From Nitrospirota bacterium (GTDB lineage Bacteria > Nitrospirota > UBA9217), in assembly GCA_963737155.1 (NCBI GenBank), contig CAVTRN010000001.1, positions 1,536,001 to 1,600,000 of the forward strand: a stretch of 64,000 nucleotides of DNA, in the 5' to 3' direction. The translations under genes and the position numbers were made by a program. The notes beneath the pieces were generated by a model that did not search any database, was not told the origin of the DNA, and was given only the letters and a program-made list of their open reading frames with translations. Positions 3,618-26,520 of this stretch are shown here, in pieces. The first letter of the stretch is position 1. Every line of letters starts with the position of its first letter.

Positions 3618-6020
3618 TCAAGGACCTGCAAGCGGATTAATTACCTGTTCGGCAAAGAACAACCAATTTGTCGCGGCTAAGCCCACGCGTTCAGGCGGGC
3701 AATTTTGATATGGAGTATTCAAGCACTGATACAATGGCGAAAGGGTGTTACCGTTTTGTAGCGTGCTGGCTACCAATCCCTGGCCGTCGCCAAAAGGGGC
3801 CGACGCTTGCGCAAGCTGCATTTGTCCGAGATAGAAATCCGCCGGATTTTCAAAGGTTGTCTGGTTGTAAAGGAGATCAACATAGCGCATTGTCTCTACC
3901 GCTTGGCCGGTAAACTCCCAGGCAACTCCGTTTTCGCCGGAGACTGGAGTGGAAACGATATCGAATCCCTGAAACGTTTGGGTTCCAACAGAGATGGTTT
4001 GTGCAAATGTATTGAGAACGTATTGAACGGGGCGAGTCCAATCCATGACTTTGCCATCAGGCAGGGGATAGTTTGAATACCGTGGCGAGCCTGCCATTGC
4101 CAATGTAGTAAAGGTATCCGAATCAAGAAAATCGCAGTCGGGCGATGAGTTTGTGTTGATGATGTCATTGCCTTCCTGGGTGCCAGTAGGACAACTGCCA
4201 GGTCCCGGCGTGGTCACGGGCTTGCTTGTGACCGTCCCGGTGTTGAAGCGTCCATTTGTCATATCAAACATCTCCATGACAAAATCACCTGCGACATTTG
4301 CAGCAGTTGTCCAGGAATTCGTATTGCTCGAATCTAATTTGGCCAAAGCTGTAAATGCGGCAAAGATATCCGCATTGTTCTCCGTCGATTTTCCTCGATT
4401 CAAAAGTTTTGGAACAGGCGCACCGTTGTCCGGATAGCCAACATAGTAACCTCCATAGCCAGTTCCGGTCGTGTCGGTCAAGTTCGATATAATCCAATTT
4501 CCAATCGTGATCGCATCATTCAGATATTTGACGTTTCCGGACTGTTTATATTCGGTCAGTAACGCCAAAATAGCCCATGCATTGTTTCCTCCAGTAGCTC
4601 CATCGAGGACAAGACAATAGGACAGTGCGCCACAGGTGAAACCTGCTAATCGGCTGTCGCCGGCTTTTGCGGAGCCGCCGGAACCTCCACCTTGATCATT
4701 CAGAAGGGCGATGTCGCCGCTCTCATATGCGTTATGAAGTCCACATTGGGTTGCTGCGAGTCCTGAAAAGCATCCGTTCGTGCCGCTAGGAGTGGTCGAT
4801 AAGTAGTCTCCCTCATTGTCGTGGTAGAGTGCGTAGTCAAGGGCATCCGCAACTGTCTGTGCATCGGTGGTATCACCTTGATCAAGGAGGGTTTCGATTG
4901 TCATAGCCGACTCGTAAATTGCCGCAATATTGCGGTTGGCTTGGTCTGGAGGGATTGAAGCCGACGTCTGAGGAACAACGCCGAACGTCTGAGTGCTGAG
5001 CGGCAGGTTCAGAGTTTCTCCCAGTTTGGTTTGGGTGGTCCGGCTAGGGACGGGGGTGAACTGAATATTGTCCAAAAGCACCGTAGCGCCGTTTGGCGCG
5101 TATTGGGAATTGGTCACAACCGTAAACAAAACATGCACGCTATCGAGGGTTGGAGGACAGGACACTGTCCCTCCAGGCGACGACACCAAAGAACTTAGTG
5201 GAATTGTCACCGTCTACCATGTCTGGGGGATTTGTTGGAATTCCGGGGTGACACACTGCCCTACGCCGAACTGTACGGTACCCATATCGGGTGAGCGGAC
5301 ATCGAAAACTATATTTTGCACACCACGGAGATCATAGCCGTTGCCGGTTTGTAAAGAACCCCAGTTCTGCGGCTCCTCGATGTTGACGCCATTGTAGTCT
5401 GTTTGCGCGTCGAATGAAATACGCATCACGGTTCCGTGCACTGTATCGAGGGCGGTGGTGGTTGTCGATGAATAGCATCCAGTGACAGTGTCTGCCGGAT
5501 TGTCAATACAACCAGCGTCTAGGTGTATGGTTGAGGTGGTGCCGGTACTACCTGTAAAGAAACCGGACGGGAAACCGTGGTTGAACCCAGAGTCTTGATC
5601 TTTATAGACATAGAAGCTCGTTTGATTAGCGGTCACCCTTGCTTGGATCTCGTCTTCCGGAGTACCCGGCGTAGCACTGGCTTGGTTTGAGTAAGAACTG
5701 GTTCCACCACTGTTGACGGCTTGCACCACAAAGTAGTAGGTCGTGCCATTGCTTACGGTCGAGTCTTCATAGGTGGTCGTGGTCAAGTCGATAGCGATGC
5801 TGCTGTACGATCCACCGCTGCTGATCGATCTCAGCACGTTGTAGCTGGTCGCCCCTGGCGAAGCAGTCCAAGTCAACGATACTTGTGCATTGCTCGCCGT
5901 TGCCGTGAGGCTAGTTGGTGCAGCAGGCGCAGGTGTGGACTTGGAACCACCTCCGCAACCGAAAAGGGTAAGCCAAAGGAAGAGTGATATTACAAATGAT
6001 GTGCCAGTGCAAAATCGCAT
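3618..6020 (-). pseudogene. Lipoprotein with Fn3, CBM-like and six-hairpin glycosidase-like domains, split by an in-frame TAG
   Basis: ORFs 5214-6020 and 3618-5210 share a frame and are separated only by TAG (5214-5216) + ACG; lipobox LFGC; Fn3 APTSLTATASNAQVSLTW...YYFVVQAVN; W*TVTIPLS; KSTENNAD. Confidence 0.7.
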
Positions 6021-6747
6021 GATATCCCTCTCTTTGCCTAAGTTGACACCGACATCGATGTCTTGTCGCCCTTAGAGTGCGGGCGCTGAGCCGTGTGCTC
6101 TTTTCGCGCTGAGTTTCATTGTCTTGTTTAGGATGAAAACCGCAATTTGTAAAACCATGCAACTGTCGTGAGATACTGGAGGTTGGTTATTAGTTGAAAA
6201 CTTTATCATAAATGCATATTACAAACCGTATTTTGTGCTTCTATTATATTTATTGAAAAAAATCCGCTCTGTCAAGGATTCACCGGTTTCACTGATCAGA
6301 ATCAGAAGGAGAGTGGTTATCATAAACTATCAAGATTTTGGAGCTCAGTCGTGATCCTCATCTCAACCTCAATTCATCAATCTAGGTCTGATAATAATTA
6401 GAAATGTCGTCTTAATTATTATGATTATATTATTTTTAAAAATCATAACACCTTATTTTAAAGTGTGTCTAAAGTGTGTCATTGTTTGCCGTTCATGTCA
6501 ATCGGGGAAACCCTAGTTTTGTGCGATGAAAATCCCAGATCTTTGTTTACGAATATTCTTGGGAAAATGCAAAATGCGTCTTGCAGGGAAGGTGTAGCGC
6601 TGCATCGCTTGCCGCGACAAAAATTTAAGTCTGGTTTCCTATCGCAAGTAAATTATTTCCAACAAAAGCAAAGTATGATATGCTTCTAAATATATTTTCA
6701 AGCCCCGTGTTATAGATATATGGTATTCTATAGCGAGAGACAGAGAG

Positions 6748-7491
6748 GTGACGATGAATCGACCAGAGAGCAAAATGTTTCCCAATGACGTAGCGCGCAA
6801 GCTCAAGAGCTACGTGTACAGACTAATTGACCCTCGAAAGGGTGAGACATTCTATATTGGGAAGGGCAAGGGCAACCGCTTATTTTCGCATATCCAAGCC
6901 GAGCAGAAATTGGTAGGCGACGATCTCGAAAATAAAATAATGCGCATCCGGGAAATACTCAATGCGGGATTAGAGGTCATTCACGTTATACATCGTCACG
7001 GAATGGATAACAAGACCGCCTTCGAAGTTGAATCCGCGCTCATCGGTGCGTATCCGGGGCTCACCAATATCACTGATGGGGCGGGTGGTAATGACTATGG
7101 GGCGATGCACGCGAAGGAGATCATCAGCTTTTATTATAGCAAGCCGGCAATATTCAAACACAAGGCGTTGTTGATTAACGTCAACAGAAGCGCCACCGAG
7201 ACATTGCTGTACGAAGCAACCCGTTACGCCTGGAAGATTAAAAAGGCTACGGCGGAGCAGGCTGAAGTCGTTCTCTCCACCTTAAAGGGTGAGATCGTCG
7301 GAGCCTTCATTGCTCACCGCTGGTTAGAAGCGACAATAAAGAACTTTCCAGGGCGCGCCACAAGACCCGGACGATTCAGATTCGAGGGGAAAGAGGCCCC
7401 TGAGAACATAAAAAAGCTGTACGTGGACAAGCGAGTGCCTGACGAGTACCGCAAGCCTGGGGCTGCGAATCCGATCAAGTATACTTGGTAG
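6748..7491 (+). CDS. LEM-3-like GIY-YIG nuclease domain protein
   Basis: YVYRLIDPR..ETFYIGKGKGNR.F.H and AFEVESALI motifs. Confidence 0.85.
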   Translation: MTMNRPESKMFPNDVARKLKSYVYRLIDPRKGETFYIGKGKGNRLFSHIQAEQKLVGDDLENKIMRIREILNAGLEVIHVIHRHGMDNKTAFEVESALIGAYPGLTNITDGAGGNDYGAMHAKEIISFYYSKPAIFKHKALLINVNRSATETLLYEATRYAWKIKKATAEQAEVVLSTLKGEIVGAFIAHRWLEATIKNFPGRATRPGRFRFEGKEAPENIKKLYVDKRVPDEYRKPGAANPIKYTW

Positions 7492-7492
7492 C

Positions 7493-7585
7493 GCCGAACC
7501 GGACACTGTACCTGACCGTGACCGCCCTACTGGTTTCGCACAACATCAGGCTCTTTCAGCGGCTCCTGCAGGGCGGTTCTGAGGG
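7493..7585 (+). repeat. Degenerate integron attC-like site
   Basis: Starts GCCGAAC-CGGACACTGTACCTGAC right after the stop codon; imperfect dyad ending CAGCGGCTCCTGCAGG; R' box eroded. Confidence 0.4.
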
Positions 7586-7843
7586 CGTCCTTCCATATCG
7601 TGTACACGATGCCTGTAATGTCCAGGTAAAGTCAAATCCGAGTCCGAACGTCATGGATACGCACTATTAGATATCACATTGTAACAAACAGCATGATACA
7701 ATAAGAAAAAGATACCTTTTATACGGATATTGTGGGTATATTATGGTAGTAGAGATCGCATGTATAACGGACTGCAGACAAACTGTTCTTGGCGAATCTA
7801 CGAACGGGGCCGCAGGACTATTACAGCATTCGGGAGTAACAGT

Positions 7844-8374
7844 ATGAGCAGTATATCCCAGTTGATCGCAATGATCAATAAAATGGAGAAGGACGGCGTG
7901 ATTAGGGGCTATGCCATCGGGGGAGCGGTGGGGGCCACGTTTTACCTGGAGCCGGTGGCGACCCTTGATGTAGACATATTTGTGGTCTTTCAACCACAAA
8001 CAAGCCAGCGTCTACTGAGTCTGCAACCGATTTACGATTACCTGACTGCCCGGGGCGGCGTCATGGAGAAAGAGTATGTAGTCATCGCCGGATGGCCTGT
8101 GCAATTTTTGCCACCCACAGGCCCGCTAGTTGAGGAGGCCCTGGCTGATGCCGTTACTGTGCAGGTAGAGGATACGCCAGCGCGAGTTTTCACCGCCGAA
8201 CACCTTGCTGCCGTTGCTCTCCAGACCGGCAGACCCAAGGATAAGGCGCGATTGCTTCAGTTCGTCGAGTCCGGCGCAATCGCCGCTGATCGTTTTAAGA
8301 CCATCCTTGACCGGCACGGTCTCAACAATCAATGGACGGAGTTTAAGAGAACATTCCTATCGGGTGCGAAATGA
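7844..8374 (+). CDS. Nucleotidyltransferase-fold protein
   Basis: YAIGGAVG...ATLDVDIF motif; start moved to ATG 7844 after a GGGAG RBS. Confidence 0.7.
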   Translation: MSSISQLIAMINKMEKDGVIRGYAIGGAVGATFYLEPVATLDVDIFVVFQPQTSQRLLSLQPIYDYLTARGGVMEKEYVVIAGWPVQFLPPTGPLVEEALADAVTVQVEDTPARVFTAEHLAAVALQTGRPKDKARLLQFVESGAIAADRFKTILDRHGLNNQWTEFKRTFLSGAK

Positions 8375-8577
8375 CCTTTGACCTCAAACGAATGCTTGAA
8401 AGCAAAAAAGCGTTGCGCCGCAAACTCGCAAGCCGCCCCTTGGCGGAAAAACTCGCTATGCTTGACGCACTACGCGAACGTGCACTCGTCCTCCGTAAGG
8501 CTGCCGAATCCATGCGTCATTCTGCCGTGCGCGAAGGCGCGAAGGGGGCGAATGACACGATCCTAGAAAAGAAGTAG
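8371..8577 (+). CDS. Small helical protein coupled to the nucleotidyltransferase
   Basis: ATGA overlap with the upstream gene; basic helical 68 aa. Confidence 0.6.
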   Translation: MTFDLKRMLESKKALRRKLASRPLAEKLAMLDALRERALVLRKAAESMRHSAVREGAKGANDTILEKK

Positions 8578-8767
8578 AAAATGTTATTACTTTTTGATTA
8601 GCACAACCCTGATATGATTCGTATTTAAAGTTCACGTTCGAGTCCAGCTTGGGGAGCTAAACACTCCCACACTATCCATCATACTCCGAAATATGCACTG
8701 TATTTTATATTACTCATTTCAAACTTGCCCACTACCTGATTTTCATGAATTATTGAGGTTGTATCAA

Positions 8768-8860
8768 CTACCTCGTCGCAAGCTGCGGAGTATGAGAACC
8801 GTGTTCATCTGAATCATTCACCGCTAGCGGCGGGGAATTTAACCCGAAGAACCGATTAAA
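8768..8860. repeat. REP/IS200-605-end-like palindromic element
   Basis: TACCTCGTCGCAAGCTGCGGAGTAT and CCGCTAGCGGCGGGGAATTT; related copy inverted at 43961-43990. Confidence 0.45.
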
Positions 8861-8870
8861 GAGGGGGCAC

Positions 8871-9059
8871 TTATGTGAGTAGAAGGGGGTGTGATTTTTC
8901 GCGAGCATTCACCCACAGGGGGGGTAGCTGAGCGCCAAAGCCTTCACCGTATTCGTCTCGCAATGTACTGACCAACGTGTAGCTGCGTTTTTTGCGAAAT
9001 TCTCCGTCATTATCTCGCATTCTTTCGTCTATGCCTTTAGGGAAATGCCTTTTCGTCAT
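8871..9059 (-). CDS. Small hypothetical protein, C-terminus probably truncated
   Basis: AGGAGG RBS; MTKRHFPKGIDERMRDNDGEFRKKRS..LV.TLR.EYGEGF is protein-like, the tail is not. Confidence 0.5.
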   Translation of the reverse strand: MTKRHFPKGIDERMRDNDGEFRKKRSYTLVSTLRDEYGEGFGAQLPPLWVNAREKSHPLLLT

Positions 9060-9096
9060 GTTTTGTCCTCCTTATTAGCAAGGTGACCCAATTAGG

Positions 9097-10656
9097 CTAA
9101 GTTTCACATTTAAAATAGATATCACGTGGCAGGCTCTCCAGTGCCTGACATTCCCCCGCAAGGTAGAGGATTGAGGCATTTTGATGTATATATAGTGGAG
9201 ACAAAAAGCTTCGCTCACTAGTCCATCTGGTCAAAGAACGCCCTTTTTTTGCTCCACGATCTGAAATTGAAAACAACTGCTGATATTGGCGAGGTGCGAC
9301 TCCTGTATAAGCAAAGAAGACAACCTTACCTTCCTCCTCTTTACCATATAATGATTCTAACGTGATTTCCTCACGGTAGAGACCGCGCGCTCGGCTTTTG
9401 GGATATGGCTCCAAGTAAACGACTCTTCGAATGCCGGCAGCAATAATATGCTTTGCACAATTGTGGCAAGGGAAGGTCGTGACATACATCGAATGACCGT
9501 CTACAGCGACGCCACTACGCGCTGCGTCGATCAATGCAGTCATTTCTGCGTGCACAGGACGGCTGAATTCGCCAATATCGAGGAATTGTGTTCCTTTGAG
9601 TTCCTTCAATAGACTGTCAGCAAGGTCTCTCGTGGGTTCTATAGCGACCGCCTCTTGCAACCACTTTTTTTGAATAATTTTCTCGATCAATTCAGTCAAA
9701 ACGCTGATCTTAATTTCAGCGGCGCGATTTATGCCCTGCTGAAGAAGATTCTGGTCTCGCAAATCGGGGGAGTTCTGATCCCAGTAAAAACCACCACCGC
9801 GCGGGACTTCATTCATTCCAACTGCTATGATATTTGTGTTCCTAGTTTTGTAGTCGTCGCGAGTGAGACTGACGATAACAGCCCCCACCTGTCGGCTATC
9901 GTCTGAGGACCGGAGTGATACTGCATTTGCTTGGTACATTGTATATTCATCGGGTTTTGGCGTGTGGAAGGGATGGCCGAAGAGCAGATCCACAAATCTT
10001 CGAACTTCATATTCCCCCTTATCAATTCCCAGGTTGGCAAAAAAATCTGCTTAAGGGTAGGTATCGCGAACATTCTGCCCGAAATCATCATCTTGTTTTT
10101 CGTCGATTGAGGTTAGTCAGATGCTTTGGCTTCAAAGCGATCCTCCTTGCCAGCTTGGTACGCTTTTAGTGCCATACGCCGCTGAAGCTCTTCTTTACGC
10201 TGGACGCGAGCCGCATGCCCTGCGATAAGAAGAAAGGAAGCCCCATACACGTGGCGTAGCAGATCGACCTCGTCGGGATGTTTCAGCTGGTGCAGAATAT
10301 ACGCATGCGCCGGTGCGGGCTTATCAGGCTTCCTGAAATTTTACCCCTTTCAGTTCGAATTTCTGCTATACCTGCTAGTGCTAAGGCATCGCCCCTGTGA
10401 AGCCGCTTTCTAAATGCATTGCCCATATTCTGCAGATGCATTATCCGTTCGCCTTCGCCTATTCCCGTTTGATTGACCCAGCCGGTAAAATGAAGTAATA
10501 GGTGAGAGAGCCGAATTTCCACGGCCTGATACCCGAAGATCAACAGCTCCTCCCTGAGCTCACGTGACAATTCATTCAACCGCGTACCTGCGGCGCCGCC
10601 GAGCGCAAAAAAAGTTCGGGTTTATGATTTGATAAAGATAAATTAACGGAGCTCAT
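9097..10656 (-). pseudogene. Anti-phage dCTP deaminase (P-loop-like + deaminase, AvcD-type), disrupted
   Basis: Reconstructed MSSVNLSLSNHKPELF(F)ALGGAAGT...YILHQLKHPDEV..LRHVYG...FGQNVRDTYP*ADFF...RQVGAVI...HAE...TTFPCHNC; apparent 1-nt deletions near 10607-10613, 10327 and 10116 plus in-frame TAA 10051-10053. Confidence 0.85.
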
Positions 10657-11003
10657 ATTTCGTTCCTCCCATGAATCCATTTAATGCGTCCGTTCCGAAT
10701 AAAATAATGACATCGTAGTTTGGAATCCCGATAATCGATACTCGGAGAGATGGTAAGAGAATCTTGTATATTTATTGACCAATATGGCCACCGGTTTTTG
10801 TCGGTGTTCAGCATGATACGGTGCCCATTTTGGCACGGACAGTCAAAGGCAATCCATTTCGGGTTTGAAAGCGCTCCAACTAAGATTGCGCCATTACGTG
10901 GCAACCGCAGCGGAATTTCGTCAGCTGACTCTATCACCCCGACAATTCGCCACCCATGGATGGGAAGCCATTGCCACCATGAAATCTTTAAGACGTTGGC
11001 CAT
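10653..11003 (-). CDS. DUF6527 family protein (Bub-associated)
   Basis: WIAFDCPCQNG...W...LTISPSI...CHYFIRNGRIKW signature. Confidence 0.8.
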   Translation of the reverse strand: MANVLKISWWQWLPIHGWRIVGVIESADEIPLRLPRNGAILVGALSNPKWIAFDCPCQNGHRIMLNTDKNRWPYWSINIQDSLTISPSIDYRDSKLRCHYFIRNGRIKWIHGRNEI

Positions 11004-12376
11004 GTTTGCTCCAAAAACGGCTGTGTCATGCCGATTCCCAGCTTACCCGTAGAAGGATGACAATAATGACCTATCCGAGGTTGCGCAATATTGGTCGAAA
11101 TTTCACGTTCGTGACAGCGCATCAACACTTCGCTCGGACGTGGCTCAGGCCCATAACCGATCAAGCGTTCCAACAACTCGCTTACCGCCGTAGCGCTTAC
11201 GAGCGTTGTAAACGTTACAACAGCCGGCTCTGTTTGCGCCAGTGCAGGTGCGTAACCCTCACCTTCTCGGCGCACTCGTTCATCCGGAGTGAGCAGTTCT
11301 GCGCCTGCGCGGGCGAAATCGATCCGGTCACGGCAGATAAGACAGGCATGTCCAGGAGAGAGAATCGTGACGCGGCCGTCGATACCCGTCAATTGACCAC
11401 TTTCATCGCTGCTTAAAAGTACGCCGCAATCAATTATGGGCGTTAGTAGATAGGTTGCAAGGCGAGATAGCACCAAACGACCCGCATTGTCATCAGTGCA
11501 GCCAAAGACCACATCACACCCAATCAGACTGCGTGCAGCTGATTCTAACGTGACCATTGATTGTACTGTTTCACAACGGAGGTTCGGAGCAATCCGCATG
11601 AGATGTCGATTCAGTATCTGCACTTTTGGTTTTCCGATGTCCGATATAGTTGAGCCATACACTCGCGTTAGATTGCTTTCGGAGAGATCGTCAGGATCCA
11701 CAAGGGTGAGATTCCTGACTCCTAGACGAAGAAGTTGCTCGGCAACAGCTGAACCTGTGCCGCCACACCCGACAATCCCGATAGCAAAATCGCCGAGTGT
11801 TTGTTGGACGGCGGCTCCAAAAGCTCGTACATTCCTGTCGAAAATGGGGGATAGCTGAGGCAGTGAGGAATCATACGCTCGGACTAGTCGCCACCGATTT
11901 CCGACTTGCCATAATCGTTCAATTTGCAATGCGTCGCAACGTTCACGCTGCAAATATCCCGTAAAAAACAAATCGGAAGAATGCAACGAAAAAATTAGTG
12001 TCCCATAATATGGGCTGCCTGAGCGGAGACGAAAGAGGTCAGCGATTTCTCTATCCACAATGTGATCATGTTCGCTGGGTCGCGGCGTTGCGTCCTGACC
12101 AGGGTGCGTATGAACCCAAATGCAGGCGGCACCAAGAGTCTCAGCCTCAGCTAACGCATGTACATAACCTTCTGATCGAATCGTTAGCCCATACTGTTCC
12201 CTCCGGCTATAGGCTTCTTCTCCCACCCATCGCATGCAGCGCGCAAGGAGCCTAATATCGCCGTTTGGGGCCTCGGCAACACCTGCCAACATTACGCCTG
12301 CTGTTTCCTTCGGAAGGCTCGTAATCGATAGAATATCTTCTGCTATATCTTGAGGAATTACGACAGATACCGTCAT
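10988..12376 (-). CDS. JAB peptidase-E1 (ThiF) fusion
   Basis: JAB E...VHTHP...S..D; ThiF GCGGTGS, DPD.L..SNL.R, GCTDD, CLIC; GY at the usual catalytic-residue position. Confidence 0.9.
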   Translation of the reverse strand: MTVSVVIPQDIAEDILSITSLPKETAGVMLAGVAEAPNGDIRLLARCMRWVGEEAYSRREQYGLTIRSEGYVHALAEAETLGAACIWVHTHPGQDATPRPSEHDHIVDREIADLFRLRSGSPYYGTLIFSLHSSDLFFTGYLQRERCDALQIERLWQVGNRWRLVRAYDSSLPQLSPIFDRNVRAFGAAVQQTLGDFAIGIVGCGGTGSAVAEQLLRLGVRNLTLVDPDDLSESNLTRVYGSTISDIGKPKVQILNRHLMRIAPNLRCETVQSMVTLESAARSLIGCDVVFGCTDDNAGRLVLSRLATYLLTPIIDCGVLLSSDESGQLTGIDGRVTILSPGHACLICRDRIDFARAGAELLTPDERVRREGEGYAPALAQTEPAVVTFTTLVSATAVSELLERLIGYGPEPRPSEVLMRCHEREISTNIAQPRIGHYCHPSTGKLGIGMTQPFLEQTWPTS

Positions 12377-12773
12377 TTGGCTGACCCCTGAACAGATTTT
12401 TCAAGATCTTTGCGCAGTAGAGCAATAAAGCTTTCAAGACCGTCAACGCCCGATCGCCACTGTCCAGCTGGAAGATGACGAGACCATCGCTGCCAGCTGC
12501 GGCCTAAATAATGCTCGATCACTTCCGTCGCCTGGATAGGCCGACCATCTGCCCTACGAACAGGAGGATCAAACCACCACATGTCTGGGGGCACATCAGG
12601 GTATCCGGGCTTAAGTCGAAGTAAAAGATCCGATTTATCGCGATCGAAACCCGCAGGTAGTTGATAATCTTTAAAAACTATACACGTCATATTCGCCTCA
12701 GACATGAGGGTATGACTACCATTGCCGACACGATCCGTCAGATACTTTGTGTCATCGGGGGTAATAATGTCAT
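12373..12773 (-). CDS. Prokaryotic E2 (family E) with WSRH active site; apparent frameshift near the 5' end
   Basis: LLLRLKPGYPDVPPDMWW...WQRWSRH; ATG at 12773 joins the frame only if the G5 run at 12757-12761 is G6 (MTLLPPDDTKYL); intact part is 12373-12705. Confidence 0.8.
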
Positions 12774-12788
12774 GATTTCCATTTGACT

Positions 12789-13169
12789 TTATGCTCCTGG
12801 ATTGATTTGCGTCGGCGCTGTGAAAAAACGAAGCCCATTCCGTATCTCTACTATATCCTGGTCGCCTATTTTCCGATCAGTGCCCCCGGGCACTACTTCG
12901 AAGAGATCGCGGTCATGTCCTACAGGCGGCGCAGGCAGTGCGCGCAGTTGCAATCCAGTCATTTGTGTTGCCTCGACTTTATAAGACTTACGGTCAATCT
13001 GAATTTCGAATTGGGTCTCATGGTGGTGATGATCCTCTGCCTCCTTAATTTCCTGGAGTGCCTCATCGATCTCATGCTCCGCCGTATCTTCGGCGGCTCT
13101 TGCGACCTTTAAGTCTGCTTCCGCCTTTTTAAGATGTTCCTCTGCCTGCTCAATTATTTTATCTTCCAT
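12789..13169 (-). CDS. Ubiquitin-like protein (multiubiquitin domain) with N-terminal coiled coil
   Basis: FEIQIDRKSY...MTGLQLRAL...DLFEVVPG..D..I...VEIRNGLRFFTAP..INPG-A; AAGGAG RBS. Confidence 0.85.
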   Translation of the reverse strand: MEDKIIEQAEEHLKKAEADLKVARAAEDTAEHEIDEALQEIKEAEDHHHHETQFEIQIDRKSYKVEATQMTGLQLRALPAPPVGHDRDLFEVVPGGTDRKIGDQDIVEIRNGLRFFTAPTQINPGA

Positions 13170-13458
13170 TTCATACTCCTTATTAAATTGCAATTTTATT
13201 TTGTGGTTTGATAGTTTAAACGTAAAATCGATAATAATGCAAACAGTAAGTAATCACTATTCACGAACACGATAAAACGTAACCATTGAACGAATCTCAG
13301 CTCTCATTCAGCACGATCAAGGCCATCTTCATGTTGGCTATCAATTTCGTGTCCGCCTCCGGAAATAATTTGCCAAGTCAGGTGATGCAAAGTGAATTGT
13401 TCATTTTTTTATTACCTCCTAAATTATAGTTTCGGTCAGTTTTATTCGACCATGATTT

Positions 13459-13528
13459 AGTATCGCAGATACTGCTAAGTTTGTCAAGCAATTAATTTAT
13501 ATCAAGCATTTACTTATTTTGCTTGATA
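13459..13528. promoter_or_regulatory. Candidate operator palindromes in the divergent promoter
   Basis: AGTATC-N3-GATACT (13459-13473); TATCAAGCA-N11-TGCTTGATA (13500-13528); extra TCAAGCA half site at 13484. Confidence 0.5.
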
Positions 13529-13591
13529 AATTGAGCATAGTAGGTTAAAATTTTCCACAAGAAGAAATTGAATGTCCAGAGAGGAGCCATT

Positions 13592-13969
13592 ATGAAAGTG
13601 GAAGAAAAAGAGCGTACTACAATGACTCTCGGCGGATATCTATACAATCAACGACAGCGAAAGAAAATGACGCTCCGAGAGGTTGAGGAGGCTACAGAAC
13701 GTGCTGTCTCCAATGCATACTTAAGTCAATTGGAAAACAACAAGATAGTGAAACCATCGCCGAATATACTTTTCAGTCTTTCTTCAGTTTACGGTATCCC
13801 TTATGCGACTCTTATGGAAAAAGCTGGATATATTTCGGATATGACTGACCGCCAGACGGGTAGACACGGGCGCGTTGCCACTTTTGCAGATGAGAAACTC
13901 ACTCAAGAGGAGGAGGAGATCCTCTTAGAATACCTCGCTTTTTTAAGAAATCGTAGAGATAAAAAGTGA
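13592..13969 (+). CDS. XRE-family HTH regulator (CapH-like)
   Basis: TLREVEEAT..VSNAYLSQLEN..I.KPSP.IL..LS.VY; GAGGAG RBS before ATG 13592. Confidence 0.85.
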   Translation: MKVEEKERTTMTLGGYLYNQRQRKKMTLREVEEATERAVSNAYLSQLENNKIVKPSPNILFSLSSVYGIPYATLMEKAGYISDMTDRQTGRHGRVATFADEKLTQEEEEILLEYLAFLRNRRDKK

Positions 13970-14883
13970 TAAAACGAGACGACTCTTATTTACCACCTGA
14001 CAGGCTCACCGCCGTCAAGAAAGAAGCCAATCGCGCATTAAGAAATGCGGATGCTTATGGTGTGTTTCCCACGCCTATAGAACAAATTTTTGAGATGGCA
14101 AAAGTCGACCTGGCTCCAGAAGACGCTTTCCATACTGGCCTTGTTCGTAGATTTAGAAATAAATTCGGCGATACTCTCAGACGTGCATTATCAAAAGTTA
14201 GTGGAATATTTGACGTCGCAGGACGCATAATCTACGTCGATCAGACCCTCCATGCGGTCAAACAAACCTTTCTCAAATTGCACGAAATCGCGCATTCCTT
14301 TATGCCATGGCAGCGCAACCTGTATTCAGCAATAGAAGATTGTAAAAAAACAATAGAATCAGAACAAGCTGATGCTTTTGATCGGGAGGCGAATGTCTTT
14401 GCTAGCGAAGTATTATTTCAAGGCAATCATTTTATGGAAGAAGCAGCAGACTGTACTTTTGGAATATTGACACCTGTTAATCTCAGCAAAAAATATGGCG
14501 CTTCGATTTATGCAGCAGTCCGCCGATATGTACGAACAAATCCCCGAGCCTGCGCCGTTCTTGTTATTAATAGTCCTATTTTAGCAGAAGTCGATGGATT
14601 CATAGCTACTCTTCGAAGGGTAGAAATGTCGGAAACTTTTTTACTACAATTTGGCAACATTGCGTTCGCGGAACAATTTACGCCTGATGATCAGATAGGC
14701 GCTATGATCCCGATAGAAAAACGAAGAATGACAAGACCACGTATTATTCTTCTTGAAGATATTAATGGAGCAACTCATGAATGTGTTGCAGAAGCATTCA
14801 CTCAGACATATCAGATTTTTATCTTAATTTGTCCCAAATTGAGTTTAACTCGTAAATCAATAGTCGTGCCGCCTTTCAAATAA
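13966..14883 (+). CDS. ImmA/IrrE-family metallopeptidase (CapP-like)
   Basis: FLKLHEIAH (HExxH), REANVFASEVLF; GTGA overlap with the HTH gene region. Confidence 0.85.
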   Translation: MIKRDDSYLPPDRLTAVKKEANRALRNADAYGVFPTPIEQIFEMAKVDLAPEDAFHTGLVRRFRNKFGDTLRRALSKVSGIFDVAGRIIYVDQTLHAVKQTFLKLHEIAHSFMPWQRNLYSAIEDCKKTIESEQADAFDREANVFASEVLFQGNHFMEEAADCTFGILTPVNLSKKYGASIYAAVRRYVRTNPRACAVLVINSPILAEVDGFIATLRRVEMSETFLLQFGNIAFAEQFTPDDQIGAMIPIEKRRMTRPRIILLEDINGATHECVAEAFTQTYQIFILICPKLSLTRKSIVVPPFK

Positions 14884-14913
14884 ATGTCATGTGAGGTCTC
14901 CTTTTTTTATGAC

Positions 14914-15366
14914 TTACGGTTTTTTCGCATCTTCGGCCCGTACCGAGTACGCAAGCATGCGTGCAAAACGGTCGCGATCTAATTCGGCGTTCCCGGTACT
15001 ATACGTGTCGTCTTTCTTGTGCTGAGCCTTGTATTTCTGCCAGAACTTCAATACCTGTTCGGTAATATCGATGGAGTCTGTATTTAACTTTCGCACCTTA
15101 TTGCGGAGAACGAGAGCGTTTATCTCCGACTCGATAGCAACGTATTGATCGACGAACTTGGCATATTGGCGATTCTGTCCATCTGTTTCCAGAAGATTTC
15201 CGTAAAAATGGTCAACCAACTTTGCACATTCAAACGTTGTGCGCTGGGTATCTGCATCATAGGGCGCAATAAGTTGCACACTACATCCAGTGATAAATGT
15301 GATGGACGTGAAAAACAACAAAAACAATAGCGGATATTGGCGAGAGCACTTTGCTTTAGTTTGCAT
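14914..15366 (-). CDS. Hypothetical lipoprotein
   Basis: Signal peptide ending ITGC; AGGAG RBS. Confidence 0.7.
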   Translation of the reverse strand: MQTKAKCSRQYPLLFLLFFTSITFITGCSVQLIAPYDADTQRTTFECAKLVDHFYGNLLETDGQNRQYAKFVDQYVAIESEINALVLRNKVRKLNTDSIDITEQVLKFWQKYKAQHKKDDTYSTGNAELDRDRFARMLAYSVRAEDAKKP

Positions 15367-15491
15367 GTAAGTATCTCCTTAATCAACGCTTAAACCTTCT
15401 GCAGATTGCAAATATCGTTAAAATGCCCGCGGAAAACATTTATCGTTTGGGGGGAATAGTCCTGTAGGCATTCTCGATCTGTGAAACGCAA

Positions 15492-16259
15492 TCAACCATC
15501 TATACCGGCATAATAATTGTAAAACTGCTTAGCTGTTCGTCCGCTTTTACAAGCTCTTAACAGCGAGAACATTCTAGCGGCTTCATGTAGCTTGCTTCTA
15601 TCCCCCCTGTAATTTGGGAAATAACTGTCGATGATTCTCAGGTAGCCTTCCATGTCTGCTTGATAGAACGATAACCAAAGCCCAAACCTATCTGACAACG
15701 ATATCTTTTCTTCAACAGAATCTGTATAATGCAATTCTCCATCAACAATACTTGTCTCTATGTTGTCTTTCATGTGTTCAGGTACTAGATGCCTACGATT
15801 AGAAGTTGCATATAGCAAAACATTGTTTGGTGGCTGCTCGATGGATCCTTCAAGCACGGTCTTCAGGGCAATATATGAGTTCTCATTTTCATCAAAGGAA
15901 AGATCATCGCAGTAAATAATAAATCTTTGCGGAAGTTCTCTTATGTCGTCAACTATGTAAGGTAAATTATACAAATCATTCTTCGATACTTCAATCAAAC
16001 GTAATCCATTTAATTTATATTCGTTCAGTATTGCCTTAATTAGTGATGATTTTCCTGTACCTCTCGCTCCCCACAATAATGCATTGTTGGCCGGCTTGCA
16101 GGAAAGAAATCGCTTTGTATTATTTACCAATTCTTCTTTCTGGTTTTCAATTCCAATCAAGGCAGCTAGAGTAATGGGGTCTATGGCCTTTACAGGACGA
16201 AGCTTACCTTGTTGTTGTCTCCATACAGCTGCATTTATTTGAGACCAGTCTATATCCAT
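15492..16259 (-). CDS. DUF815 family AAA+ ATPase (intact)
   Basis: ANNALLWGARGTGKSSL, IIYCDDLSF, YATSNRRHLVPE, SLSDRFGL. Confidence 0.9.
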   Translation of the reverse strand: MDIDWSQINAAVWRQQQGKLRPVKAIDPITLAALIGIENQKEELVNNTKRFLSCKPANNALLWGARGTGKSSLIKAILNEYKLNGLRLIEVSKNDLYNLPYIVDDIRELPQRFIIYCDDLSFDENENSYIALKTVLEGSIEQPPNNVLLYATSNRRHLVPEHMKDNIETSIVDGELHYTDSVEEKISLSDRFGLWLSFYQADMEGYLRIIDSYFPNYRGDRSKLHEAARMFSLLRACKSGRTAKQFYNYYAGIDG

Positions 16260-16519
16260 AAAAAAATTCCCTCCCACGAAGAGCAAATCATTGTTGATCC
16301 ATGGTCAGTAGCAAGCAATCTAGGATCTGTTTAGCATCGGATTAAAGTTTTGGACATTTGTCATTCATTAGCCCCTTTTCGGGAAAGCTTGATGATTATA
16401 ACGATCTGGCTCTTGCGCTTAATAAGGGTGTTTAAGGCCACCTTACTCTTCCGGAAGATAAAATCAACATGCCAAGAATAATTTCCTTAAAGAGGAAAGA
16501 GTAGTCAAATCGACTGCGC

Positions 16520-16918
16520 TCAACTCTTGCCTTTTCCTGTCTCTTGGCCTGCGCTCTCGATCAAAGAACCCGGTGCGTTGAGAAATGTCTGGTTGACTTG
16601 GGAAAATAGCTGTGTACTGGCCCCCTCGCTGCTGTCTCGGTCCAGTTCCCCTGCTGATTTATAGACAAGCTCCATAACTCTCGCGGCATCAGATGCCTTC
16701 ACACGAGTATCGGTAACAATACATCCGTCCTTGTCTTTCTCTCCAAGGAATCCGGTCATGATCTTCTCGGCGCATTTTGACGCGAGCCTGAGCTTACGAG
16801 GATGGGCTAGACTCTCCTTCCGCAGCTTCGGTAACACTCGTGACACAGATTTAGGGTGATAATCTAGGGCTTTTGCTATTGCGGAATGAGAAAAGCCGTT
16901 CTCTTCAAGTACCAACAT
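16520..16918 (-). CDS. HTH protein, possibly terminase-small-subunit-like
   Basis: GFSHSAIAKALDYHPKSVSRVL HTH; VKASDAARVMELV helix; reading frame stays open upstream without a clear start. Confidence 0.45.
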   Translation of the reverse strand: MLVLEENGFSHSAIAKALDYHPKSVSRVLPKLRKESLAHPRKLRLASKCAEKIMTGFLGEKDKDGCIVTDTRVKASDAARVMELVYKSAGELDRDSSEGASTQLFSQVNQTFLNAPGSLIESAGQETGKGKS

Positions 16919-17049
16919 AGCGGCCCGTTTTATTGCGCTTTCCGGCTTCCTTCCGGTGATTTTATGTGGTTTTTCTATAGGTTCTAAAGTATCGATATTT
17001 TCTCCGCGTATAAGCCAAATTTATCTTGCCCATACTGGTACAAGACAAC

Positions 17050-17970
17050 TTACGGCTTCTGTGCAATAGTTAGAGCCAAGGATGCCTCCCTCTGAAATCC
17101 TTTCGGTAAGCCGTTCATCTGAATGCCTGTGTAATCGCTGCTCAATAATTCGATAGCCCCATGAAATTCCTTCACCCTAAGTTTTTTGCGGAGTTCCCTA
17201 TTAGATTCAACGACCTTCTGATAGTAATCAACCAAAGTTCGACCCAAGTTGTTCGCGGTCACGAGATAAAGCATATGATCGCCCGTAGAGCCGAAATACG
17301 CGTCTATTTCCCAAATTCGTTCCCCGGCTGGTTGGAAGAGGCCAGGCTGCGGCCAGCAAAGGCCTCCGTGGAATATAAGTAAGTAGTTGTTTGTTCCGGG
17401 TTCGTTGATGCACTTGACACGAATAGTTTGCTTGCAATCTTTGCCCGTCTCGTAAATCTTTAGGCTGTCGCCATTCTTTGGACTGATGATAGTCGCCCCG
17501 AGGGTCTCCTGGGATCGGATAAAGGCGGCATTCTGGGAGCGAATCTTCATCGCAAGATCATGCGGGAAGAGAGCAACCTCGACGCCGCGATGCTGAAGTT
17601 TCCACAACCCCTTACCTGTCACGCCTTGATTGGGGTCCAGGATCCCCACGAAAACTTTCCTGATTTCGTTCTGCAGGATCAATTCGGTACAACACTCCAA
17701 TCCTCTCGTTCGGACCTCCGGTGTGCATGGTTCAAGTGTGGTGTATAGTGTCGCTTTCGGCAGCTGAGTCCTATCCTTGACGCCTTTAAGGGCAACGTGC
17801 TCTGCGTGGTCATCGTCGCCTTCTATCCCTGTTCCTCGACGACCGCGTCCAATCACTGTGTCGCCGATAGCAATAACGGCGCCGACTTTTGGGATGCTTT
17901 CCTTGCTCGGGCTGCATTTGTCTGCCCAGTCTATCGCCTCATTCATCAATTTGATGTCAACATTCTCCAT
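17050..17970 (-). CDS. Zn-dependent deaminase (RibD/CMP-deaminase-like N-domain) with uncharacterised beta-rich C-domain
   Basis: PKVGAVI, HAE, LYTTLEPC...CC, GILDPN; no reductase domain. Confidence 0.8.
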   Translation of the reverse strand: MENVDIKLMNEAIDWADKCSPSKESIPKVGAVIAIGDTVIGRGRRGTGIEGDDDHAEHVALKGVKDRTQLPKATLYTTLEPCTPEVRTRGLECCTELILQNEIRKVFVGILDPNQGVTGKGLWKLQHRGVEVALFPHDLAMKIRSQNAAFIRSQETLGATIISPKNGDSLKIYETGKDCKQTIRVKCINEPGTNNYLLIFHGGLCWPQPGLFQPAGERIWEIDAYFGSTGDHMLYLVTANNLGRTLVDYYQKVVESNRELRKKLRVKEFHGAIELLSSDYTGIQMNGLPKGFQREASLALTIAQKP

Positions 17971-18357
17971 GTTCTTCTCTCCCTGTCTACTCTAAATGAT
18001 TTTCAGCGCGCCCTGGCCAATGAAACAACCCGGCACTCTGGTCGCGAACAACTGGGTTACCATAAGTCCCCTCGTTCTACAGAAAGTACTCTTTGATTAA
18101 ACACTTTATCACAATGACATATTTCAATCAGTAAATTAGCATCAAGCTATTGGGTAGATTTTCTAAGATTCATCTATAAGCAGCGCAGCGGCGTTGACTA
18201 TAAATCAATGTAGAATGCGACTTGAAAATTGAACGCGAGCGCGGGTTACGCGCCGCCTTTGATGCGTCGCTGTGGACCCGCTGGTACGAATCAGTGCGTC
18301 GAATGCTACGCTAATATGTTTTTGTCAACAAATGAGATTTGTCCCATCAATATCCTT

Positions 18358-24997: not shown

Positions 24998-26520
24998 GAC
25001 GAGGTCAAGCTTTTAGTTGAAATTATCTGAGTGGCCCGTTCCCTTCGGCTAAAGTATTTTTATCGGTTCAACGGTGTAAATCATCGCTGTTTATAAAATC
25101 GGATTCGTAGGATCGCCATATGTGAGTTTTCTGAGGCCGAGCCATACCTAACCATCCCCCTTTACGCAGCCTCTTTGACTGTTAGGTCATTTAATTCTTC
25201 CGCTTCGATCCGTTTCATCACGTCCGCGATGAAGGCGTGGCCCTTGATCTTTCTGAATCCTTGTTCAGCATATAAGAGGACAGAAGCGAGCCAGCGCTGC
25301 ATCATCTTGCTGTCGCGGTAGCGCTTTATATTGCCTTCTGCTTTTCTCACCGTGGAAAACATGCTCTCGATAGGATTGGTAGAATGCAACGTCTTCCTCA
25401 AGAGAGCGGGGACCTTCAATCGATGAAGGGTGAGAATGTCTTCTATCGCTTCCATGAGCGAATCAGCCGCCGACTCATTAATGCCCCGAAGCCATTTCTC
25501 CATGTCCAGAAGCATCTGACGAGCGTCCGCGTAATTATTCTGCTCCAGGGCTGTCCGGAACCTCCAGTGTGCGCCTTTCCGGTATTTCTTCGGCAAATGA
25601 TGCTGTATATTCCGGTCCTTGTGGATCGTGCACCGCTGATGGATGAGTTTCTTACCGAAGCGATCCCGGAGTGCCTTGATTACGCCCTTGCCGCCATCGG
25701 TAACCCAGATGATTCGTCGTGAAAGTATCAGACCTCGCCGCTCTATATCAGAAAACAGCTCTTCACACAGTTCATGGTTCTCCGTCGCCCCCTGCCAGAA
25801 CCCCAATGTCTGCTTCTTTCCGGCAATATCAAGCCCCAGCGCCACGATGAATGCCTCTCCGCCGCGGTGAACAGTGTCTAAAAAGACCGCAAAGGGAACG
25901 AATGACGTGAGTGACCGTTCCTTAAACTCCTGAAGCTGTTTTGCTGTTGCCGCGACGATATGGCTCGATACCGTGCTGGCGGACACTCCAAATGCTCGTG
26001 CCGTATCTACAACTGTCTCCGCATACTTCCGGCATGATATGCCCCGAAGCACCTTTCCAAGCAATTCTTCTGCGAAGACTTCCGGTTTTTTCATCTTCTG
26101 ATAGCTCTGCAGTACAATCTCACCCGCCGGACCTCGAAGCCGAGGGTGGGTCACCGGGATCTTCTGATCTCCGATATAGACGGAACCGCCCTGGCTAGCC
26201 CACTTCCGCAGATCGGGACTGTTAGGCTGGTAGTCGGGGCCGGCAATCTCCTCCCGCTCGATGTACATGATCGTCTCTGCCATCATTCTGCCCATTTCCT
26301 TCATGCATTCATCAAAACCCTGTTTCCCTTTTGCGAAGACACAATACATCTGTTCGATGATCTCCCGCCTTCCGTATGCCTCTTCAATTCCTCGTATTGC
26401 CTTTTTTCTCTTCCTTGTGGTATCCTTCATTGAGTGGCTCCTTTCTTTTTTCTCTCTCTACCGTGGATTATGCCACGGGGGAGCCACTCTTTTCAATTTC
26501 AACTAAAAACAGTATAACCT
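24998..26520 (-). mobile_element. IS256-family element
   Basis: Imperfect IRs sharing TTTTAGTTGAAATT...GAGTGGC; flanking direct repeat GGATTCCGAA at 24988-24997 and 26521-26530. Confidence 0.85.
25162..26430 (-). CDS. IS256-family transposase
   Basis: VFLDTVH, VTDGGKG, HQRCTIHK.RN, STNPIES. Confidence 0.92.
   Translation of the reverse strand: MKDTTRKRKKAIRGIEEAYGRREIIEQMYCVFAKGKQGFDECMKEMGRMMAETIMYIEREEIAGPDYQPNSPDLRKWASQGGSVYIGDQKIPVTHPRLRGPAGEIVLQSYQKMKKPEVFAEELLGKVLRGISCRKYAETVVDTARAFGVSASTVSSHIVAATAKQLQEFKERSLTSFVPFAVFLDTVHRGGEAFIVALGLDIAGKKQTLGFWQGATENHELCEELFSDIERRGLILSRRIIWVTDGGKGVIKALRDRFGKKLIHQRCTIHKDRNIQHHLPKKYRKGAHWRFRTALEQNNYADARQMLLDMEKWLRGINESAADSLMEAIEDILTLHRLKVPALLRKTLHSTNPIESMFSTVRKAEGNIKRYRDSKMMQRWLASVLLYAEQGFRKIKGHAFIADVMKRIEAEELNDLTVKEAA

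Follow-up and report, generated by a model that had tools for sequence, protein, structure and literature searches.

A 64,000-nucleotide stretch of the genome of a Nitrospirota bacterium (GenBank assembly GCA_963737155.1, contig CAVTRN010000001.1, positions 1,536,001 to 1,600,000; the whole stretch is called the window below) carries at positions 8871 to 14883 a Bub-type bacterial ubiquitination operon together with a gene for an anti-phage dCTP deaminase of the AvcD family. The locus is best explained as a Bub operon in decay, belonging to a conserved and horizontally mobile type which has this deaminase as its last gene. Six minus-strand reading frames lie within 13193-8871, namely those of a ubiquitin-like protein (Ubl), an E2, a JAB-E1 fusion (BubCD-like), a DUF6527 protein (BubE), the dCTP deaminase and a product of 62 amino acids (aa). 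This set of genes, including the WSRH motif of the E2 and the GY of the JAB-E1 fusion, had been proposed in a first-pass annotation made from the sequence letters and was confirmed using Pfam, PADLOC and motif inspection. Elsewhere, Bub genes and deaminase are linked in members of many phyla; three gene orders and two divergent Bub lineages are represented, and the linkage is therefore regarded as conserved and almost certainly functional.

Linkage of Bub genes and deaminase across loci

Two sets of loci were compiled. For the genome set, BubCD was aligned against one genome per species, the best 80 of 193 relatives were taken and the operon proteins were placed by tblastn. For the metagenome set, the deaminase was aligned against metagenome contigs and the best 80 of 518 relatives were taken. 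A first hint of linkage was given by 35 identical longest-contig values common to the best 120 deaminase and the best 120 BubCD protein hits.

A deaminase gene was located downstream of the Bub genes and on the same strand in 12 of the 80 Bub loci, and in 8 of the 10 loci in which BubCD is ≥ 69% identical to that of the window. The hosts of these Bub-deaminase genome loci belong to the Thermodesulfobacteriota, Acidobacteriota, Gemmatimonadota, Alpha- and Gammaproteobacteria. Seen from the deaminase, same-strand Bub or SDH-protease genes (see below) were present upstream in 31 of 31 loci with a deaminase ≥ 50% identical to the intact homologue P0002; only loci with ≥ 600 nt of sequence upstream were counted, and the 31 loci correspond to ~25 distinct ones, as six near-duplicate pairs are included. 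The first-pass annotation had asked for a search for adjacent DUF6527 and deaminase genes in other genomes, and according to these counts the adjacency is not unique to this genome. Between 45 and 50% identity to P0002, upstream Bub or SDH genes were found in 3 of 4 loci, and below 45% in none of 17, four loci of this band having Bub-like genes in other arrangements.

The sole exception at 45-50% identity, L125, has a DDE transposase directly upstream of the deaminase and is 99.4% identical to the Bub-linked locus L126 from 22 nt inside the deaminase ORF (open reading frame) onward. It is an insertion sequence junction, not a stand-alone deaminase. Within the deaminase clade described in the next section, 34 of 35 informative loci were Bub-embedded. 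The genes flanking the Bub-deaminase core differ among loci.

Alignment of BubCD with viral contigs gave 19 pattern matches and no relative. On plasmids, BubCD relatives are present (best 62% identity, Phenylobacterium); the plasmid deaminases are all < 45% identical (E. coli, Klebsiella, Vibrio), and no annotated plasmid record of the pairing was found. Since the plasmid-borne genes all fall below 45%, the experimentally studied deaminases are placed on the stand-alone side of the family.

Phylogeny, co-divergence and gene order

In a quick IQ-TREE phylogeny of the deaminase (65 rows), all Bub-linked deaminases fell into one clade of 43 rows with an SH-aLRT support of 99. A separate clade of 18 rows (support 98) comprised 11 deaminases without Bub genes, six with too little flanking sequence and one (L143) with a BubCD-like gene downstream of the deaminase on the opposite strand. 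The window deaminase was placed in a Bub-linked clade of seven rows (support 99) together with L082, L087, L002, L110, L003 and L005. The BubCD tree, computed for 79 distinct genome loci and the window, grouped the window with L002, L003 and L005 (support 96) and is congruent with the deaminase tree. Distances of BubCD and deaminase were correlated in Mantel tests both in the close lineage (r = 0.58, 1 of 2000 permutations as high) and in the distant lineage (r = 0.59, 25 of 2000 permutations as high). Between the lineages, the p-distance was 0.74 for BubCD and 0.49 for the deaminase, the latter being no more than within a lineage, and the deaminases linked to the second lineage, BubX, are nested among the other Bub-linked ones. 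The low between-lineage divergence and this nesting indicate that the deaminase moved between Bub lineages, yet stayed in a Bub context.

Three gene orders were observed: BubE-deaminase, as in the window; BubE-SDH protease-deaminase; and BubE-SDH protease-second E2-deaminase (L019, L038). The second E2 (L019:10614-11033, L038:10635-11054) is a complete Prok-E2_E protein with WSRH. It occurs besides the canonical E2, whose gene lies upstream of BubCD, and its gene shares 8 nt with the start of the deaminase gene. In 45 of 49 loci, the deaminase starts between -32 and +86 nt from the end of the preceding gene; in the remaining four, all from the genome set, the protease slot of ~1 kb intervenes. 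In 11 loci the deaminase overlaps BubE in an ATGA, as it does in the window, where the deaminase ATG (10656-10654) overlaps the BubE TGA (10655-10653). This coupling had been described in the first-pass annotation and is seen in the sequence.

A second Bub lineage and the SDH protease

BubX, the second lineage with the deaminase as the last gene, was found in metagenome loci (L097-L099, L101, L103, L111-L112, L114-L115, L117-L122, L126). Its four Bub genes were identified by Pfam as a Ubl of 78-85 aa without the helical N-terminus, a Prok-E2_E protein of 129-135 aa, a JAB-ThiF fusion ~30-35% identical to the BubCD of the window, and a DUF6527 protein of 116-161 aa. Two deviating arrangements were recorded: in L134 the deaminase stands ahead of the Bub genes, and in L121 a gene with a Schlafen/AlbA_2 domain follows the deaminase.

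All 48 loci which were scanned from the 80 Bub loci carry a gene of ~300-325 aa on the same strand at most ~30 nt past BubE (for instance L004:9721-10647). Its product matches PF01972, the ClpP-like SDH-type serine proteinases, and NCBIfam Clp_like_SDH with 5.8e-18, which is below the cut-off. Operons of the L004 and L084 types contain both protease and deaminase; the protease gene is absent from the window. PADLOC has no model for the SDH protease, and in a literature search no paper was found that ties it to a dCTP deaminase or to a Ubl system. A Clp-fold protease behind a Ubl tagging system may merit its own study. An ORF of the same size is present at the same coordinates in L048 and L078, two loci outside the scanned 48.

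The Bub genes of the window

The Ubl gene (BubA-like, 12789-13169, minus strand, with the ORF extending to 13193) matches PF14452 Multi_ubiq with 2.1e-11 and most likely starts with the ATG at 13169. The predicted protein consists of a helical N-terminus rich in E, K and A, a His run, one beta-grasp domain and the C-terminus QINPG-A. QINPG is kept in the relatives and the tail after it is variable (0 to ~25 residues), so that the window and its relatives are predicted to share the C-terminal glycine of a Bub Ubl. The ending INPG-A had been recognized in the first-pass annotation and stands, whereas the coiled coil named there had been read from composition only.

The E2 gene (BubB-like, 12373-12782, minus strand; PF14462 Prok-E2_E, 3.6e-32) is frameshifted at its 5' end. 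The remaining ORF (12705-12373) encodes 110 aa with WSRH and covers only positions 21-122 of the PF14462 profile. WSRH is present in 109 of 112 E2-like ORFs, the one of the window included, and aligns to the Citrobacter BubB. The E2 of the window thus lacks the catalytic Cys and has Ser-x-His instead, as is characteristic of a Bub E2.

The JAB-E1 fusion gene (BubCD-like, 10988-12376, minus strand; ThiF 7.5e-38 and Prok-JAB) is intact and encodes 462 aa. The JAMM residues E24, H89, H91, S101 and D104 and the crossover-loop residues G374-Y375 are invariant in 51 homologues. In a phmmer search, the best PDB match was the Citrobacter BubCD 9ea4 (1.8e-26), in which GY aligns to GY. The fusion of JAB and E1 and the Tyr in place of the crossover-loop Cys are both Bub features. 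The BubE gene (DUF6527, 10653-11003, minus strand; PF20137, 8.2e-19) is likewise intact. Its product of 116 aa has the length of the L005 homologue and contains the motifs CPC...H and PSI...RCH (SPSI...RCHY); at motif level, the pattern PS[IV]...C.H is present in all eight BubE sequences inspected (window and relatives).

Ubl and E2 are unfused, as in the closest relatives: the Ubl gene ends with a stop codon at 12791-12789, and the E2 gene lies in a different frame. The window therefore lacks the BubAB fusion of the Type I operons of the Bub preprint, and through the 5' deletion in E2 it lacks a complete set of intact Bub genes, Ubl, BubCD and BubE being full-length. Judged by its sequence, the Bub part of the window passes as a Type I-like Bub operon except for the unfused Ubl and E2 and the broken E2. 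Oxyester conjugation by this operon is predicted chemistry, for which the residues are present.

Damage to the deaminase and E2 genes

The deaminase gene (9097-10656, minus strand) is a pseudogene, derived from an anti-phage dCTP deaminase of the AvcD type. Its C-terminal ORF of 298 aa (PADLOC dCTPase, 2.3e-80) retains HAE (VHAEM) and PCHNC, both of which are invariant in 45 sequences. A search with this ORF as query retrieved intact homologues with lengths of 523-570 aa, to several of which NCBI has given the name 'anti-phage dCTP deaminase'. In tblastn with three intact homologues, three frames of the window (10609-10316, 10331-10116 and 10116-9109) were needed to span residues 17-521 of P0002. 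The fragment of the window scored 239.7 bits with NCBIfam NF041025, below the cut-off of 400, and the intact relative from L005 scored 411.7 bits with the same model and 1e-140 with PADLOC dCTPase. By homology, the deaminase belongs to the NF041025/AvcD family, with the predicted two-domain make-up of an N-terminal NTPase/kinase-like part and a C-terminal Zn deaminase (HAE/PCxxC). A PDB sequence search with the L005 deaminase returned dCMP deaminase domains only and no AvcD-type structure. Deamination of dCTP/dCMP and phage defence by the intact relatives are predicted from the family. The first-pass annotation had described a P-loop and deaminase gene; the deaminase was confirmed, whereas the glycine-rich N-terminal motif reads GAAGTRL, which we take not to be a canonical Walker A.

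Three changes of frame and one stop codon interrupt the gene. The deletions were located by eye from the frames and the tblastn alignments. At 10607-10613, there are seven T where the homologue frame needs eight. A second 1-nt deletion lies in GGAAG at 10329-10333 (from ...GKISG to KPDKPAPA...), and a third, outside any homopolymer, at 10116-10118 (from ...AKASD to LTSIDEK...). The fourth lesion is an in-frame TAA at 10051-10053, at which P0002 has a Lys (TYP*ADFF). An alternative genetic code or programmed frameshifting was considered and rejected, since the homologues are single ORFs, three shifts and a stop would be required, and E2 is also damaged. In the first-pass annotation, the damage to the deaminase had been signalled only by the word 'repaired' and the 5' deletion in E2 had been overlooked, its Prok-E2_E assignment and WSRH being correct.

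In E2, alignment of the DNA with five relatives revealed a 1-nt deletion in the C-run 12761-12757. The ancestral frame starts with the ATG at 12773 (or 12782) and ends at a premature TGA at 12740-12738. The deletion removes ~24-27 N-terminal residues, a segment which is present in 86 of 86 distinct E2s of relatives and aligns to the Citrobacter BubB chain 9eae_C. The E2 genes of the relatives begin ~25 codons farther upstream, with (M)xLPxxDxxYL..., and in the window the segment is still encoded, out of frame past the C-run. Because E2 and deaminase are both inactivated, the system of the window is predicted to be not functional and the locus is taken to be a relic. A copy in which only E2 and deaminase are broken is by itself a case of ordinary gene loss and of little interest.

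Four 1-nt deletions and one stop codon in ~2 kb raise the question of whether the frameshifts arose in assembly and the organism itself has an intact operon, a question which is separate from the meaning of the linkage. All four frameshifts are 1-nt deletions, two of them in homopolymers (T7, C5) and a third in AA, which is the usual error type of long reads. Sequence from three soil-metagenome runs of one study served as read-level material; its contigs (X1, X2) cover 8800-8973 and 9323-9926 without differences and include no lesion site, so that no contig or read spans the lesions. None of the public runs listed for the stretch was of RNA. Against assembly errors stand one deletion outside any homopolymer, the in-frame TAA, which is a substitution, and the full-length Ubl, BubCD and BubE genes amid the broken ones. 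Moreover, long housekeeping frames of the same genome are open without a stop over ~19 kb, among them rpoB (1337 aa), dnaE (1173 aa) and aminoacyl-tRNA synthetases (950, 926, 830 and 657 aa). As these genes are intact, assembly noise is an unlikely cause of the lesions, and an intact operon in the organism appears quite improbable.

Proposed function and alternative explanations

The following sequence of events is proposed for an intact operon. Upon a DNA-damage or phage signal, CapP would cleave CapH and the operon would be derepressed, as expected from the families of these two regulators, which are encoded next to the operon (see below). The JAB domain would then cut the Ubl tail after the Gly, and the E1 domain would adenylate the Ubl, which would pass via Tyr375 and the E2 Ser (WSRH) to lysines; BubE would reverse this conjugation. 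The chemistry of these steps is taken from the Bub preprint (PMC11601596). The co-translated deaminase would convert dCTP/dCMP to deoxyuridine nucleotides, by which phage replication would be starved, as can be expected from its family.

The first-pass annotation had suggested that the deaminase may be the effector or the conjugation target of the Ubl pathway, or else a co-induced second layer of defence; its observations were largely right but incomplete, and its interpretation is partly supported. We consider it somewhat more probable than not (probability about 0.55) that this deaminase clade depends on the Bub machinery. Most simply, the enzyme would be an effector, and attachment and removal of the Ubl would control how active or how stable it is, in the way that Cap2 and Cap3 tune the cyclase in type II CBASS. 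This dependence is suggested by deaminases which were never found outside Bub operons, which were re-captured by a second lineage and which in two loci have a coupled E2 of their own. The anatomy of the operon, the lesions and the conserved tight linkage were observed directly; from them we infer the dependence and its direction. More tentatively, and with doubt prevailing, Ubl conjugation might act as a covalent switch on the deaminase, where E1 and E2 attach the Ubl, BubE or the JAB domain removes it and dCTP destruction is turned on or off accordingly in the course of an infection, the Bub lineage being a chassis with an exchangeable last-gene slot for the deaminase, the SDH protease or both. 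If true, the switch would provide the first physiological substrate and output of a pathway with unknown targets.

Several points weigh against a dependence of the deaminase on Bub. The 19 clade-specific conserved positions of the Bub-linked deaminases include no lysine, these deaminases have no sizeable insertion, and the comparison gave no lead to an acceptor site. In 48 scanned loci, the ClpP-like SDH protease occupies the same position, either instead of the deaminase or additionally, and 68 of the 80 sampled Bub loci have no deaminase, so Bub can do without it. Furthermore, both locus sets were chosen by similarity to the window proteins, not at random, and include near-duplicates, and the trees were computed under LG+G4 with SH-aLRT support only. 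Finally, tight linkage and co-divergence are also expected of a merely synergistic, co-regulated pair. A complex prediction for the L005 E2, the beta-grasp domain of the Ubl and the deaminase, made with alignments and without controls, gave a score of 0.00 and a mark of 0.32 and weighs neither way.

Such a pair is the main rival explanation: two independent arms would share one regulated transcript, Bub tagging proteins of the phage or the host and the deaminase separately depleting dCTP, and synergy and co-induction would keep them together. It would account for the many Bub loci without deaminase, for the AvcD-type deaminases below 45% identity, which are stand-alone genes in all 17 informative loci and on plasmids of E. 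coli, Klebsiella and Vibrio, and for the DNA-damage-type regulators upstream in part of the loci. We nevertheless regard it as rather unlikely. The exclusivity is one-way, with the only exception within the clade being an insertion sequence junction, whereas free shuffling should leave some stand-alone clade members. In addition, the deaminase occurs in two Bub lineages whose BubCD proteins are only ~30-35% identical, its own divergence between lineages equals that within them, and the second E2 coupled to it in L019 and L038 appears dedicated. The adjacency could also be hitch-hiking in one mobile defence island, devoid of functional meaning. In the window, the operon indeed lies among a NACHT gene, a second deaminase-like ORF, a GIY-YIG ORF and a Mutator transposase, and a search of 40 relatives of this genome, including 14 from its own genus, did not find it. 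Mere hitch-hiking is nonetheless very improbable, given that the neighbours vary around a persistent Bub-deaminase core, which occurs in three gene orders and two Bub lineages, that BubCD and deaminase co-diverge and that the start-stop overlaps are conserved. These linkage explanations exclude one another. Dependence of the deaminase on the Bub machinery thus remains the preferred reading. For the genome at hand, the absence of the operon from the 40 relatives indicates that it is accessory.

A deaminase clade which is found only inside Bub operons would be the first candidate output of Bub, as effector or substrate. Easy read-outs are available for it (dCTP/dUTP pools, toxicity, plaque assays), and L002, L005 and L087 provide intact natural operons. 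PADLOC and the NCBI names treat the genes as single-gene systems, and defence finders therefore miss the five-gene unit.

Comparison with known systems

Bub operons were predicted in 2006, and oxyester Ubl conjugation was demonstrated in 2024. The prediction comprised four core genes only, with a Ubl-E2 fusion for some species only, as far as the relevant part of the publication describes them (Iyer et al. 2006, PMC1779556). According to the main text of the 2024 preprint (10.1101/2024.11.21.623953, PMC11601596), trimming and adenylation of the Ubl are the task of BubCD, its transfer proceeds through oxyesters with Tyr and Ser, and BubE deconjugates it, the targets and the biological role being still to be defined. 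Its example of a Type I (6E/DUF6527) operon is that of Citrobacter sp. RHBSTW-00271. As presented there, this operon shares with the window the C-terminal Gly of the Ubl, a Cys-less E2 with WSRH, a JAB-E1 fusion with crossover Tyr and the DUF6527 protein. CapH and CapP neighbours, as in the window, were reported for 31% of 544 Bub operons. The best PDB matches of the window BubCD and of a relative's E2 are the Citrobacter BubCD and BubB. The window differs from the Citrobacter operon of the preprint in that Ubl and E2 are separate genes instead of a BubAB fusion and the Ubl has one beta-grasp domain with a helical N-terminus. It further differs in the dCTP deaminase as last gene, in the 5'-truncated E2 and in a BubCD which is only distantly related, judged by the phmmer E-value given above.

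AvcD-type enzymes deaminate deoxycytidine nucleotides and starve phage replication, as the relevant part of the source states (PMC10511110). The Bub-linked deaminases resemble AvcD of Vibrio cholerae (AvcD/AvcI; NF041025) in having two domains, a C-terminal dCMP-deaminase fold, HAE and PCxxC. In contrast to AvcD, they form a clade of their own, ~35-42% identical to the plasmid-borne genes of E. coli, Klebsiella and Vibrio, and were never stand-alone in the loci examined; the copy in the window is, in addition, a pseudogene. No AvcI-like RNA was detected as an Rfam match with E up to 0.1 in the region 6000-18000, and Rfam may not hold AvcI.

In CBASS, the C-terminus of the cyclase itself plays the role of the Ubl, and the chemistry is that of thioesters. 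Bub, in contrast, has a separate Ubl and reported oxyesters, and the C-terminus of its partner deaminase is not Gly. The likeness to type II CBASS with Cap2 (E1-E2) and Cap3 (JAB) is that enzymes of Ubl-type conjugation and deconjugation are co-operonic with a nucleotide-acting defence enzyme, as far as the system is described in the part of PMC10097602 concerned. It is an analogy and would be a precedent for the regulation of an effector by conjugation, not a sign of membership. The bacterial ISG15-like system Bil is also a defence operon of a stand-alone Ubl, E2, JAB and E1, and its Ubl is conjugated during infection, according to the account of Bil in the Bub preprint (PMC11601596). In the same account, Bil differs from Bub in its Cys-based E1 and E2 and in having no DUF6527, and no nucleotide-depleting enzyme is reported for it. 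The protein tagged by Bil is a tail protein.

The words 'deaminase', 'effector', 'ClpP' and 'SDH' have no occurrence in the main text of the two Bub preprints. A literature search found no paper tying Bub or DUF6527 to a dCTP deaminase, although supplementary Table S1 (544 operons) could list such cases. This agrees with the first-pass annotation, in which the combination was held to be undescribed. Bub operons with a dCTP deaminase of their own thus appear to represent a variant, so far undescribed, of a known system.

Regulators, small ORF and genomic surroundings

Divergent from the Bub operon, two overlapping genes for putative regulators are located on the plus strand. The first (13568-13969) encodes a CapH-like XRE-type helix-turn-helix repressor (HTH_3 1.1e-8; PADLOC capH 2.9e-4). 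The second (13966-14883), which overlaps the capH stop codon, encodes a CapP-like metallopeptidase of the Peptidase_M78/IrrE-like type (PF06114 3.6e-6; PADLOC capP 1.5e-14). CapP-type proteases cleave CapH upon DNA damage. For the pair in the window, which has the composition and arrangement of such a regulator pair, cleavage and sensing of DNA damage are predicted. The pair was considered as a fixed part of the module and dropped, as upstream regulators vary among loci. Among 58 ORFs upstream of 19 Bub-deaminase loci, Peptidase_M78 and HTH_3 were found four times each and Peptidase_S24 three times; a damage-responsive regulator is common upstream but not fixed.

The 375-nt region between Ubl and the divergent regulators contains an inverted repeat at 13473-13537 with 19-nt arms that are 84% complementary. 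It was found in a repeat search, and promoter-like hexamers overlap it on both strands. The repeat is a candidate operator. The promoter scan counted consensus matches only and returned 10 sites against 7.4 expected, which is not significant.

The small ORF of 62 aa at 8871-9059 on the minus strand is preceded by AAGGAGG and has no match in Pfam or PADLOC. A word-index search among 5.8 billion proteins found only the ORF itself. Its first 39 residues are 74% identical to an ORF of 69 aa (L005:6796-7005), which is located upstream of Ubl in L005 and L091. Their C-terminal parts are different, and as seven consecutive C occur at this place in the window, the small ORF may be frameshifted as well. 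It was dropped as part of the module, as its sole relative (L005/L091) is upstream of Ubl, and probably lies outside the conserved module.

A second ORF with a cytidine/dCMP-deaminase fold (17050-17970, minus strand, 306 aa; PF00383 1.3e-12) matches RibD-N-like and Inv-AAD profiles, and its C-terminal half is uncharacterized. It adjoins a gene for a NACHT protein of 972 aa (18358-21276, minus strand), and the two may form another defence pair in the same island. Further genes around the operon are an ORF with a GIY-YIG (LEM-3-like) nuclease domain (6748-7491, plus strand), a DUF815 AAA ATPase (15492-16286, minus strand) and a Mutator-family transposase (25162-26430, minus strand). Such surroundings fit a mobile or defence island. 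In the 64 kb of the window, no tRNA gene was detected. At 8800-8916, immediately downstream of the small ORF, stretches of 27-60 nt are 84-96% identical to sequences in the related genomes G006, G011, G021 and G022, which do not have the operon, and may mark the boundary of an island or be a repeat dispersed among intergenic regions.

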